A stretch of DNA of 64,000 nt from Escherichia coli (GTDB lineage: Bacteria; Pseudomonadota; Gammaproteobacteria; Enterobacterales; Enterobacteriaceae): the NCBI RefSeq assembly GCF_050920415.1, contig NZ_CP169309.1; one strand, written 5' to 3'. Under the pieces are notes generated by a model. That model did no database searches, had not been told where the DNA came from, and saw nothing but the letters and a program-made list of their open reading frames with translations. This document shows positions 23,483 through 39,802 of the stretch, one piece after another. Both the position numbers and the translations under genes were made by a program. Within the stretch, counting starts at the first letter, position 1. The number at the start of each line of letters is the position of its first letter.

Positions 23483-23552
23483 ATGAGAGGCACGGGAACT
23501 GCCGGACATAGTTGGTCTGATAAGCGAAGCGCATCAGGCAATTTCGCAAATT

Positions 23553-23610
23553 GCAGATAGTAAAAAAGCGCCTTTAGGGCGCTTTTTTACATTGGTGGGT
23601 CGTGCAGGAT
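23553..23610. repeat. terminator palindrome plus 18-nt copy of the tRNA-Lys 3' end (att-like direct repeat, copy 1)
   Basis: gcagatagtaaaaaagcgcctttagggcgcttttttacat followed by tggtgggtcgtgcaggat, identical to the first 18 nt of the lysV complement at 39727. Confidence 0.6.
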
Positions 23611-23707
23611 GACTCGCTTCGCTCGCCCTTCGGGCCGTCGCCGCGAGCGGCTCCGTTGTTTCGCTGCGCTCAACTCGAACCTGCTGCAGGTTCGAATCTT
23701 TGAGTAT

Positions 23708-23765
23708 CGCAGATAGCAAAAAAGCGCCTTTAGGGCGCTTTTTTACATTGGTGGGTCGTGCAGAA
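23708..23765. repeat. second tandem copy of the terminator/att-like repeat (island-proximal boundary)
   Basis: gcagatagcaaaaaagcgcctttagggcgcttttttacat followed by tggtgggtcgtgcag (15 nt of the tRNA-Lys 3' end); near-identical to copy 1, about 155 bp away. Confidence 0.6.
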
Positions 23766-23826
23766 TCCTTATTCAGACTCTAACCTTTTGAAAAATCAAG
23801 AGATATAACACTAACAACCATCACTG

Positions 23827-23851
23827 TGGGCCTAATTATAGGCCCATTTTT
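23827..23851 (+). terminator. hairpin plus T-run just inside the island boundary
   Basis: tgggcct-aattat-aggccca followed by ttttt on the plus strand. Confidence 0.4.
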
Positions 23852-23927
23852 GAAAGCTGCAAGTAAGAATTGATTTTGGTGATTTAAGTGCACAATTTTC
23901 AGGCAGCGCGGGAGTTGCAGCGGCATA

Positions 23928-24227
23928 TCAGGAGATCATTAACCCGGATTCACCTTCCACGATCACACCACCATGTTCGGTGGTATCTCCCATACGGGCA
24001 ACGGCTTTACCGTTAATTTTGAGAACCGTTGAACCGGAAACAATAGTGTCTTTGCTACCGCTACCTTTGCAGGTGAGCTTATCACCCACCAACGCCAGCG
24101 GAACACCATTATACGTAACAAAGGTCTGCTGACATTCACTGACCGGGCCACCAATATGTGGGCGGGGGCCGGGATCAACTTTCGGGCAGGTATGGTTATG
24201 TCCTTTGAGTACCACGGCTTTACTCAT
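23928..24227 (-). CDS. PAAR-domain protein (T6SS spike tip)
   Basis: ORF 23928..24317 trimmed to the ATG preceded by AGGAGA: 99 aa MSKAVVLKGHNHTCPKVDPGPRPHIGGPV...GVPLALVGDKL...GKAVARMGDTTEHGG, Gly/Pro-rich PAAR-like repeats; start overlaps the upstream gene stop by ATGA. Confidence 0.7.
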   Translation of the reverse strand: MSKAVVLKGHNHTCPKVDPGPRPHIGGPVSECQQTFVTYNGVPLALVGDKLTCKGSGSKDTIVSGSTVLKINGKAVARMGDTTEHGGVIVEGESGLMIS

Positions 24228-24982
24228 CGTCTGTTCTCCTGCGCAGTTTTTGTGAATATGTCCAGAAGTCGCCAGTAAGCATACTCCTGTTGTCCCAGAT
24301 TCAGGCAACCATACCACCGTGGATGCAGAGGATCATCAAAACAACGAAATCCGTCATAATATTGGGCTACTGCCAGTAGCACTTCGGCCTGTCCGCCGGA
24401 TTCATAGCGGGATAGCGCCCGCCTTGCACTAGCCATCAGTTGTCGGTATATATTTTCATATAGCTCAACTGTTGGCGAAAAAGCCGTTCTTTTTTCCACC
24501 GTATACAGGCGGGTGAAAATCTGACCACTCCCCAGCCAGGCATTGTGATATTGGGGGATAATGCAGTGAGGCGTATCCGGCCCCCAGGAATGTTTATAGT
24601 GTTCACTAAGCCAGTCAACAGACCAGTCATCTTTATGTGCTATCAGGTATGCAGGTATAGTCTCATCTTGCGGGGATGTCTTTGCACTAATGTAGTGTTC
24701 AACAATTTTCTGCAATTCCGTATAGCGGACATCCTCCATAAAAAACGATCCCAGGCACAATCTGGCACTGGCAATATGTATAGCAAGCAATTGATCAGGA
24801 ACTTTTTGAGTCTCAGTCCATTGATAGCTCTGTCTGATTAATTCATCAATAGCGGATGCGGGAAGCTTTCTGTCGGTAATAACCTTACCAAAGCGGTTTA
24901 CCAGCCAGACGCGGCCCTTTTTCAGAAATTCCATCATCCGGTGCTCCGCCAGACTACGGTAAGTTGCTTCTGTTATCCTCAT
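24224..24982 (-). CDS. hypothetical cytoplasmic protein, 252 aa (T6SS operon member; immunity candidate)
   Basis: Intact ORF with GGAGAG RBS about 9 nt upstream of the ATG; no TM segment or signal peptide; position only. Confidence 0.55.
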   Translation of the reverse strand: MRITEATYRSLAEHRMMEFLKKGRVWLVNRFGKVITDRKLPASAIDELIRQSYQWTETQKVPDQLLAIHIASARLCLGSFFMEDVRYTELQKIVEHYISAKTSPQDETIPAYLIAHKDDWSVDWLSEHYKHSWGPDTPHCIIPQYHNAWLGSGQIFTRLYTVEKRTAFSPTVELYENIYRQLMASARRALSRYESGGQAEVLLAVAQYYDGFRCFDDPLHPRWYGCLNLGQQEYAYWRLLDIFTKTAQENRR

Positions 24983-33253: not shown

Positions 33254-34281
33254 AAAACGACACGCCCGATAGCGGAAAACGGAATGAGACACAGGCTCTG
33301 CGTGATGCCTGCTACGGCAATTTTTTTGCTGTCACCGATCTGCTGTACCGCAGTCGTGGCGATGCCATTTCACTGAGAACGGAACCGGAGCAGGAAACGG
33401 TTCATTTTCGTGCCAGTCCTGACATCGCGTTTCCCCTGCGGGATATTGAATCGCTGGAAAAAAATACCGCCGATCAGTACGTAATGACCACCCGATTTAT
33501 GGGGTTATCCGGCAGTTCATCACCATTGCCGGGTTACTATCTGGATGAGATGGCCTGGGTGCAGGCACAGGAAGGCGGCAGCACAACGGCGGATTTCCTG
33601 AACCTCTTCACCCACAGGTATACGCAATTTTTGTACCACATCTGGCGAAAATACCGCTGGTATATCAGTTTTCGTAATGGTGGAACGGATAAGATCTCAC
33701 AGCGGATCTATGCGCTTATCGGGCTGGGCAACCCGCGTGTACGGGAACGGCTGGATATCTGCCACAGCAGGCTGCTGGCTTACGCCGGAATATTATCCGG
33801 CCCCGGACGTTCACCGGCAATGATCTGCGATCTGATCGCACACTGTTTTGATCTGCATGATGTCAGACTGGAAAACTGGCAGTTTCGTCGGGTGGCTATT
33901 CCACCTGATCAGCAAACCCGGCTGGGAAGGTGTGAGCCGGATGCCGAAGGGAAGATGCAGGGTAAATCGGTGCTGGGCGTTAATTTTGTTCTCGGCTCGC
34001 GCGTACCGGATTACAGTGGGAAATTTATGTTGTGTATCAGTAACCTGTCACTGCCGCGATATATGGCCTTTTTGCCCGACGGTGAGGAATACCTGGCGCT
34101 GACCACCTTCGTGGCTTTCCTGTTGCGCGATCAGTTTGCCTGGGAGCTGCGGTTAAGTCTTGTGCCAGAGCAAATTGGTGGAATGCGGCTGGGGGATAAG
34201 AGAAGCTCTCAACTGGGGAGAACCAGTTTTATTGGTAAGCCGCCACGCGAACCCTTTGTGACCATACGGGTCAGGGGATAA
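33217..34281 (+). CDS. tssG: T6SS baseplate subunit TssG (ImpH/VasB family)
   Basis: 354 aa overlapping the tssF 3' end by 37 nt; conserved FMGLSGSSSPLPGYYLDEM block typical of TssG. Confidence 0.8.
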   Translation: MEGKNRSVPPDVENDTPDSGKRNETQALRDACYGNFFAVTDLLYRSRGDAISLRTEPEQETVHFRASPDIAFPLRDIESLEKNTADQYVMTTRFMGLSGSSSPLPGYYLDEMAWVQAQEGGSTTADFLNLFTHRYTQFLYHIWRKYRWYISFRNGGTDKISQRIYALIGLGNPRVRERLDICHSRLLAYAGILSGPGRSPAMICDLIAHCFDLHDVRLENWQFRRVAIPPDQQTRLGRCEPDAEGKMQGKSVLGVNFVLGSRVPDYSGKFMLCISNLSLPRYMAFLPDGEEYLALTTFVAFLLRDQFAWELRLSLVPEQIGGMRLGDKRSSQLGRTSFIGKPPREPFVTIRVRG

Positions 34282-34616: not shown

Positions 34617-35078
34617 ATGGCTGTTATTTCTGTTCATAAAGACGATTTACTTACCATCCCCTTCAGTGCCGCTACTGATTTCACCGATCTGGCTGCTCAC
34701 TGCGATCGCTTCGCCCAGACCCTGATCGAATGCCACAATCCTGCGCTAAAAATGGCGCTCTGTGGCAGGCTTAATACCTGCCTTGCACTGTTGCGGCCCA
34801 CGCTGAACGAGCCGATCCCGCCGCATCTGATTGACGGTTTTATTACGAATGATTTTCCCGATGTTTCACCCGGTTTTGAACCTGATGCAGAATCACTCTG
34901 CGATTACTGCCTGGCGCTGACACAGATACTGAATGGTCACTCACTGTTACCTGAAACCGAAACCACGCTGACCGGGCTGCTGTGCGAGCTGGTCTGGTAT
35001 TTTGCTGACAGTCTGAAAGCCCCGCACTGGATACGTACCGCTGACGGCGTACAGGTTATCGACGGGAGGCCAGCATGA
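34617..35078 (+). CDS. hypothetical protein, 153 aa, translationally coupled to the Ner-like gene
   Basis: Intact ORF; stop overlaps the next gene start (ATGA); no recognisable domain. Confidence 0.45.
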   Translation: MAVISVHKDDLLTIPFSAATDFTDLAAHCDRFAQTLIECHNPALKMALCGRLNTCLALLRPTLNEPIPPHLIDGFITNDFPDVSPGFEPDAESLCDYCLALTQILNGHSLLPETETTLTGLLCELVWYFADSLKAPHWIRTADGVQVIDGRPA

Positions 35079-39726: not shown

Positions 39727-39802
39727 TGGTGGGTCGTGCAGGATTCGAACCTGCGACCAATTGATTAAAAGTCAACTGCTCTACCAACTGAGCTAACGAC
39801 CC
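39727..39802 (-). tRNA. lysV: tRNA-Lys (anticodon UUU)
   Basis: Reverse complement reads GGGTCGTTAGCTCAGTTGGTAGAGCAGTTGACTTTTAATCAATTGGTCGCAGGTTCGAATCCTGCACGACCCACCA. Confidence 0.95.

Follow-up and report, generated by a model that had tools for sequence, protein, structure and literature searches.

Why should a PAAR gene that encodes nothing beyond the spike-tip domain stand at the very end of a vgrG operon, with vgrG only the sixth gene upstream of it, and what would its product do there? The question is raised by a 64,000-nucleotide (nt) stretch of an Escherichia coli chromosome (contig NZ_CP169309.1, hereafter the window), which carries seven co-directional minus-strand genes in the order vgrG-DUF4123-444-341-309-252-PAAR, where numbers are protein lengths in amino acids (aa) and the successive junctions measure −4, +16, −1, +2, +32 and −4 nt. 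The operon belongs to an insert of about 16 kb, located between xapR and gltX and adjoining a tRNA-Lys gene. The explanation that best accounts for the observations, and which we consider probable, is that a minimal PAAR caps the VgrG of this island and marks its fixed end, while the cargo, carried on a split adaptor, is exchanged between the two. PAAR would then owe its last place to being part of the invariant frame of a tRNA-Lys integrative island.

The PAAR protein matches Pfam PF05488 (PAAR_motif) over residues 20–90 (E 7.1e-20; 71.5 bits, with a cut-off of 27), and its AlphaFold2 model, based on 20 homologues, is all-beta with a predicted local distance difference test score (pLDDT) of 94.6 and a predicted template modelling score (pTM) of 0.86. 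When this model is compared with the PDB using Foldseek, the top matches are the classical PAAR structures VCA0105 (4jiv_D, E 2e-5, TM-score 0.75), c1882 (4jiw_D) and T4 gp5.4 (4ku0_D), with TM-scores of 0.71–0.77; further matches are a baseplate-cup chain of a KP1-variant Klebsiella phage (9f4b_BA) and gp163.1 of phiKZ (6p1z_D). The closest solved proteins by sequence are 8gra_J, entitled “Type VI secretion system spike protein Paar” (E 1.4e-13), and 9rce_c from SalCis10 (E 1.6e-13). Neither Pfam nor the model reveals an extension domain (toxin, Rhs or transmembrane) in the single 99-aa domain, and none of the seven cassette proteins has a Pfam match to the PAAR-like DUF4150 or to DUF2169 (Tvp), families taken as defined in PMC13373197. 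This agrees with the initial annotation, made from the letters of the window, which had described a stand-alone 99-aa PAAR without toxin extension and had named fold prediction as one check. The protein scores 36.1 bits with NF033420, the canonical proteobacterial PAAR model for a type VI secretion system (T6SS) in NCBIfam, below its threshold of 124, and shares about 35% identity over 52 residues with the NF033420-type 94-aa PAARs of the host core cluster; it can therefore be assigned to a distinct, narrow subfamily. A word-indexed search returned 38 PAAR cluster representatives, of which most come from Enterobacterales. Among 20 homologues, H24 and C53 are invariant and H12, C14 and H85 are at least 90% conserved, a His/Cys set compatible with the metal site at the apex of PAAR proteins. 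The reading frame is intact, with 99 codons, in all seven loci compared, and the ratio of nonsynonymous to synonymous substitution rates (dN/dS) against the orthologues of Salmonella and of the islands L014 and L024 is 0.04–0.07, which indicates strong purifying selection.

PAAR is the downstream-most gene of the block running in the direction of vgrG in every context examined. In Salmonella enterica (loci L002–L006), at a tRNA site beside nadA, tssG-tssF are divergent from a vgrG followed by one or two unrelated genes (141 + 430 or 117 + 401 aa), a gap of 86–203 nt and PAAR. Island L014, inserted at the same lysV site as that of the window and devoid of tssFG, has vgrG, genes of 119, 75 and 329 aa, and PAAR. 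Budvicia aquatica and an Enterobacteriaceae metagenome-assembled genome (L016) have the order vgrG-DUF4123-542/550-356/334-317/308-248-PAAR within a complete T6SS cluster, and a metagenomic island flanked by two integrases (L017) has the gene order of Budvicia. The remnant L013, without vgrG, still contains a 309-like gene, a 252-like gene and PAAR. PAAR is again last in L024, a sibling island inserted at the nadA-side site in E. coli. PAAR is also the best-conserved island protein, with 88% identity to its Salmonella counterpart, compared to 70% for TssG, 66% for VgrG (residues 1–624 only) and 63% for TssF.

The comparison with L024 delimits what is exchanged. VgrG (98%), TssG (97%), PAAR (97%) and the last 135 residues of the 252-aa protein (93%) are close to identical in the two islands, whereas the cargo in between has diverged: identity falls to 44% for the DUF4123 protein (Tap), to 35%, 24% and 38% for the 444-, 341- and 309-aa proteins, respectively, and to 35% over residues 1–116 of the 252-aa protein. 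Sliding-window DNA identity places the two breakpoints of the swap at about 28900, where vgrG stops and Tap starts, and at about 24640, corresponding to codon 116 of the 252-aa gene. The Tap gene, which seemed to lie within the conserved left arm according to a 94% blastn segment, was removed from it by the sliding-window profile and by tblastn, the 44% being at the amino acid level. Within PAAR itself, DNA identity to L024 drops to 82–83% at 24067–24157 between flanks of 95–100%, with a synonymous rate (dS) of 0.25, a dip that may reflect a small conversion tract. Resemblance at the DNA level to the Salmonella and L014 islands restarts exactly at the PAAR ATG and continues through a hairpin to the attachment (att) core, a stretch not shared with Budvicia. 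Judged from these alignments, vgrG constitutes the constant left arm of a cassette holder and PAAR, together with the att arm, its constant right arm, the genes in between being exchanged. The idea that PAAR had been captured with another module, also put forward in the initial annotation, is thus not borne out, since the cargo varies while PAAR and the roughly 160 nt separating it from the att core are constant. That effector modules are swapped between conserved flanks is familiar for T6SS auxiliary clusters from the Vibrio cholerae literature.

The gene starts with the ATG at 24227–24225 and stops with the TGA at 23930–23928, and the stop codon of the 252-aa open reading frame (ORF), a TGA at 24226–24224, lies within this start as an ATGA overlap. 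The last position in the operon, the overlap, the AGGAG preceding the ATG and the extension of the ORF by 30 codons upstream are all as first annotated. The longer frame begins with a GTG at 24317 and would encode 129 aa; its additional codons overlap the 3′ end of the 252-aa gene, which is read in a different frame and happens to be open in this one, the sole reason for the longer frame to exist. It was considered as the real product and rejected, as an in-frame stop is found 1–7 codons upstream of the same ATG in four orthologous loci, namely Salmonella (with two cargo types), Budvicia and L013. The 20 aligned homologues begin mostly with MSK, MGK or MP, and 35 of the 38 representatives are 88–104 aa long, the three outliers measuring 138, 147 and 171 aa. 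The Prokaryotic Genome Annotation Pipeline (PGAP) calls an identical 99-aa product (WP_000030802.1) in the sole complete E. coli genome with the island. The orthologous stops, the lengths of the homologues and the PGAP call settle the start, held to be ambiguous in the initial annotation, as unambiguously the ATG at 24227. The spacing between the stop of the 252-like gene and the start of PAAR is −4 to +1 nt in five out of six cassettes having such a gene (ATGA in the window, ATGATGA in L024, TAA-A-ATG in Budvicia and L016, TAAATG in L017), and 18 nt with its own AGGAG in L013. Translational coupling of PAAR to the 252-aa gene is plausible from these junctions.

The possibility of such a coupling raises the question of what the 252-aa protein is. 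PGAP calls the gene as 237 aa in NZ_CP169399, but the motif M1-R/K-x-T at the start of the 252-aa version is kept in 11 of 11 family sequences, and this longer call is therefore probably the right one. The family is very rare: at E ≤ 0.001, a set of 1.84 billion clustered proteins contains 18 representatives. One protein found by HMMER in that set (P0062, E 4.8e-7) is a single chain of 511 aa with a DUF4123 domain at 87–218 and a 252-like region at 268–490; it aligns with the 252-aa family with an hhalign probability of 97.3% over 85 columns, and its halves match the two separate genes of the island by tblastn (32% identity for DUF4123, and 23% over 231 aa for the 252-aa protein). Its gene is followed by a GH108/PG_binding effector. 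A second relative (P0057) comes immediately after a DUF4123 gene of 194–205 aa, in a cassette of the form vgrG-DUF4123-252like-X-Y-309like which has no PAAR. The N-lobe of DUF4123 spans about 177 residues in Tap6 and Tap14 (PMC11582642); the island DUF4123 protein, with 191 aa, has about the size of this lobe alone, and full-length adaptors found in the analysis have 254 and 290 aa. The same source describes TecT and co-TecT as dividing the work, the N-lobe binding the spike and the other part the effector (PMC11582642). Taken together, the fusion, the adjacency and the N-lobe-sized DUF4123 protein lead us to lean, with some reserve, towards the 252-aa protein being the lobe that binds the effector in a split DUF4123 adaptor, detached from the rest. 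The fusion and the adjacency are also the reason for which an immunity role, the alternative for this gene, is ranked below the co-adaptor reading. Foldseek found no significant match to the 252-aa model in the PDB, a PDB sequence search with the family profile returned no match, and hhalign detected no similarity between the family and the full-length DUF4123 protein of the host.

How the pieces would work together can be outlined as follows. According to PMC7324665, Shneider et al. (2013) described one PAAR binding the three terminal beta-strands of the VgrG trimer and sharpening the spike, and often being needed for assembly. One minimal PAAR, carrying no toxin, would in the same way sit on the blunt beta-helix end of the island VgrG trimer, completing and sharpening it. 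The toxin cargo would comprise the 444- and 341-aa proteins; most likely it is attached through the split DUF4123 adaptor to a helix-turn-helix-like tail of VgrG, DQVEALTAMVNEGKPFCEICAKAK, which among the aligned VgrGs only the DUF4123-linked ones have; the 191-aa Tap N-lobe would bind this tail and the 252-aa lobe would hold the effector. Through the ATGA overlap, translation of PAAR would follow that of the 252-aa gene, such that a cognate tip would be made only after the entire cassette, with its immunity gene, had been transcribed, and in a fixed proportion to it. PMC11925235 reports that PAAR and TecT stoichiometry, as well as competition among PAARs and among VgrGs, affect delivery, which would make it sensible to place PAAR last. 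The spike would be fired by the core T6SS of the host. The complete genome which has the island encodes a full T6SS at aspV (tssBCEFG, tagH, tssJKL, tssH, tssA, tssM, hcp, three vgrG modules and two 94-aa PAARs), so a machine able to do so is available. The island copies of VgrG, TssF and TssG are 52–61%, 49% and 55% identical, respectively, to those of the core cluster. In that cluster (L019, NZ_CP169399 4112000–4161000), one vgrG is interrupted by the insertion sequence IS21, IS2 lies between a vgrG module and a PAAR gene, and the DUF4123 gene is followed by three DUF3304 genes.

Several observations weigh against this scheme. The connection between PAAR and VgrG is one of genetic linkage only, seen in all contexts but the L013 remnant, and a PAAR with 88% identity accompanies Salmonella VgrGs in which the distal beta-helix and the C-terminus are quite different, which leaves the specificity of the pairing unproven. 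Two further PAAR genes and three further vgrG genes are, in addition, present in the host. A scan for intrinsic terminators after PAAR, on the strand of the gene, found none. Finally, the Salmonella and L014 orthologues have 86–203 nt before PAAR and no 252-like gene, which means that the coupling is not required by this PAAR and is dispensable in Salmonella-type islands.

The tight junctions in five of six cassettes would also fit a different role, in which PAAR is the docking platform of the effector and the 252-aa protein, whose conserved C-terminal half would always accompany the PAAR gene, a co-adaptor bridging the two, comparable to TecT and co-TecT loading TseT onto PAAR4, for which PMC11582642 and PMC6684961 provide the precedent. 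The block nearly identical to L024 runs from codon 116 of the 252-aa gene through PAAR, and the trio of 309-like, 252-like and PAAR genes survives without vgrG in L013, both of which are in line with such a role. PMC11582642, however, has TecT binding a C-terminal extension of PAAR4 which the island PAAR does not possess, while all VgrGs of DUF4123-type cassettes have the helix-turn-helix-like tail that Tap N-lobes bind. Distant 252-like genes, moreover, adjoin or are fused to DUF4123 with no PAAR nearby, and PAAR is found without any 252-like gene in Salmonella and L014, so we regard docking on PAAR as unlikely. A more elaborate variant, in which the 252-aa protein founds a new, very rare family of detached lobes, its conserved C-terminal half works physically with the extension-less PAAR, the tip itself helps to load an effector of nuclease type made of two parts, and the ATGA sets the stoichiometry, is given equally little credence.

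The breakpoint inside the 252-aa gene, along with the vgrG-less L013, which keeps the 252-like gene and PAAR, could instead mean that these two genes were acquired separately and added as a module to an existing vgrG-effector operon. Their GC content, 51% for PAAR and 49% for the 3′ half of the 252-aa gene, does exceed that of the cargo (38–43%), but so does that of vgrG (54%) and of tssF/G (53–56%, with tssF at 56%), and the low-GC cargo is therefore the odd part. The constant partners of PAAR across the islands are vgrG, tssFG and the att arm, and not the 252-aa gene, and complete T6SS clusters, too, contain the entire order from vgrG to PAAR; a two-gene acquisition is accordingly quite improbable. 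Least probable of all, to a degree that leaves it hardly any room, is that PAAR is a redundant or decaying leftover of a host whose core cluster has its own PAARs. The two canonical 94-aa genes of that cluster and the decay of tssF, tssG or vgrG in some relatives of the island would be compatible with this, but the low dN/dS, the intact frame in seven loci and its rank as the most conserved island protein are not what a gene in decay would display, and at about 35% identity over 52 residues the island PAAR is no duplicate of the core ones. The index of the assembly collection lists 137 blocks with an identical protein and 612 with the form found in Salmonella.

The capping of the island VgrG by a PAAR held at a fixed island end, which remains the preferred explanation, is framed by the features listed in Table 1. 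The region is to be regarded as a tRNA-integrating genomic island, considering the tyrosine integrase beside the tRNA, the direct repeat at the far end and its absence from most E. coli (it is present in 1 of 5426 complete genomes). The stretch at the att-like repeat abuts lysV in island-free E. coli, and the distance from the PAAR stop to the att core is 161 nt. A second integrase-like gene is also carried by the island.

Table 1 Features of the island and of the vgrG-PAAR operon in the window, with the basis of each assignment.
Feature	Position	Strand	Basis
att-like repeat of the tRNA-Lys 3′ end, TTGGTGGGTCGTGCAGAAT	23750–23766		
Right arm, PAAR stop to att core, with hairpin GGGCCTATAATTAGGCCC	23767–23927		
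Stand-alone PAAR spike-tip gene, 99 codons	23928–24227	minus	PF05488, AlphaFold2, Foldseek, dN/dS
Shine-Dalgarno AGGAG, 8 nt before the PAAR ATG, within the 3′ end of the 252-aa gene	24240–24236	minus	Read directly
252-aa all-helical protein, proposed detached C-terminal (effector-binding) lobe	24224–24982	minus	
309-aa protein, probable immunity	25015–25944	minus	Role inferred
341-aa protein, candidate PD-(D/E)xK-like toxin	25947–26972	minus	Motif conservation, inferred
444-aa protein, putative effector or effector-carrier	26972–28306	minus	Directly after DUF4123; hydropathy
DUF4123 adaptor (Tap), 191 aa, short	28323–28898	minus	PF13503, E 1.2e-20, residues 50–164
VgrG, 690 aa	28895–30967	minus	Full Pfam VgrG domain set, TIGR03361
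Island tssF and tssG, divergent from vgrG	31406–34281	plus	PGAP
153-aa protein, no family match	34617–35078	plus	Between tssG and the integrase-like gene
Tyrosine integrase, 403 aa	38250–39461	minus	Annotated integrase domain protein in L001
tRNA-Lys (lysV), integration site and other island end	39727–39802	minus	ARAGORN

The hairpin of the right arm has an 8-bp stem, and the 141-nt stretch of the 23790–23930 region folds with a z-score of −4.4. It is kept in the E. coli and L014 islands, and the Salmonella island has it with three substitutions and a one-base deletion. Its T-run is on the plus strand only, there being no U-tract on the strand of PAAR, and it may act as a terminator for incoming transcripts or have a part in recombination. 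The stretch 23550–23766 holds two 61-nt RtT-like repeats, both of which end in a partial tRNA-Lys 3′ end, and a related complete genome has about 150 nt more at this place, consistent with one further copy. At the other side of the operon, neither tssE nor tssK accompanies the island tssF/tssG, which are baseplate wedge genes; some relatives (L003, L024 and L014) have them in split form or have lost them. The gene for the 153-aa protein, which is 95% conserved in L024, lies beside a small HTH_35 gene; both may be island regulators.

The 444-, 341-, 309- and 252-aa proteins have no credible match in Pfam or NCBIfam, even at E ≤ 10, and a PDB sequence search with the 341- and 444-aa proteins also returned none. 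In the 341-aa protein, G182-x-D184 and K206 are invariant among five homologues (23–50% identity), and position 204 is E in four of the five and D in the fifth; this PD-(D/E)xK-like signature makes a nuclease toxin plausible. A single strongly hydrophobic stretch or helix lies at about residues 305–325 of the 444-aa protein. Its gene has one base in common with the start of the 341-aa gene, and the protein may be the carrier or membrane-active part of a two-ORF effector. The 309-aa protein, which has no hydrophobic segment and is cytoplasmic, is a probable immunity protein. Its gene, in which the GC content falls to 29% at the 5′ end, has three paralogues in the Budvicia T6SS locus (L007, 8275–9225, 12812–13744 and 14087–14911). 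Immunity genes often occur as arrays of paralogues.

The PAAR gene and its placement are by themselves ordinary, since a stand-alone PAAR closing an operon of vgrG, adaptor, effector and immunity genes has already been described. In a census of PAAR genes, vgrG was located within five genes upstream in 45.6% of the cases and within twenty genes up- or downstream in 62.3% (PMC8651086). Less ordinary are the probable split adaptor of an undescribed family, the unannotated two-ORF effector region and the integrative island with tssF and tssG, and the literature searched yielded no description of this island. The fixed position of PAAR marks a compact mobile holder of cassettes for uncharacterised effectors in E. 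coli, Salmonella and other Enterobacterales, in which the probable split adaptor and the candidate PD-(D/E)xK toxin are both without database annotation. The island could thereby serve as a natural system for studying split DUF4123 adaptors, the need for a cognate PAAR in genomes with several PAARs, and the exchange of effector cassettes.

The closest known arrangement is that of Agrobacterium tumefaciens C58, vgrG1-tap1-tde1-tdi1-paar, where PAAR caps VgrG1 and Tap1 loads Tde1 on the C-terminus of VgrG1 (PMC7324665). Both modules combine vgrG, a DUF4123 adaptor, a nuclease-type effector, immunity and a stand-alone PAAR in last position, but in the window the adaptor appears to be split, its second half lying between the immunity candidate and PAAR, the effector region consists of two ORFs without known family, and the whole is embedded in a tRNA-Lys island with its own tssF/tssG. 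The PAAR4-TecT-co-TecT-TseT-TsiT system of Pseudomonas aeruginosa (PMC11582642 and PMC6684961) resembles that of the window in its split DUF4123 adaptor, a probable one in the window and there made up of the N-lobe TecT and the effector-binding co-TecT, in its effector of nuclease type and in being an orphan PAAR cluster distant from the core T6SS. It differs, according to PMC11582642, in that TecT docks on the C-terminal extension of PAAR4, whereas here PAAR has no extension and VgrG has the tail; the likeness is one of arrangement. With VCA0105 (4JIV), c1882 (4JIW) and T4 gp5.4 (4KU0) the island PAAR has in common a single domain of about 95 residues and the same fold, although sequence identity is only 15–30% and the island subfamily has an additional N-terminal segment, H-x-C-P ... 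P-H-x-G-G-P. The 94-aa PAARs at aspV in the same genome are likewise stand-alone and interleaved with vgrG-effector-immunity modules, but they lie directly upstream of the next vgrG, while the island PAAR lies at the end of the island. V. cholerae Aux3 is a mobile T6SS auxiliary module. Integrase-bearing or otherwise mobile modules and orphan islands of hcp, vgrG and PAAR, on plasmids or chromosomes, add a spike part and an effector-immunity pair to a resident T6SS, as stated in the abstract of PMC13098142; unlike such auxiliary and orphan islands, the one described here also carries tssF and tssG.

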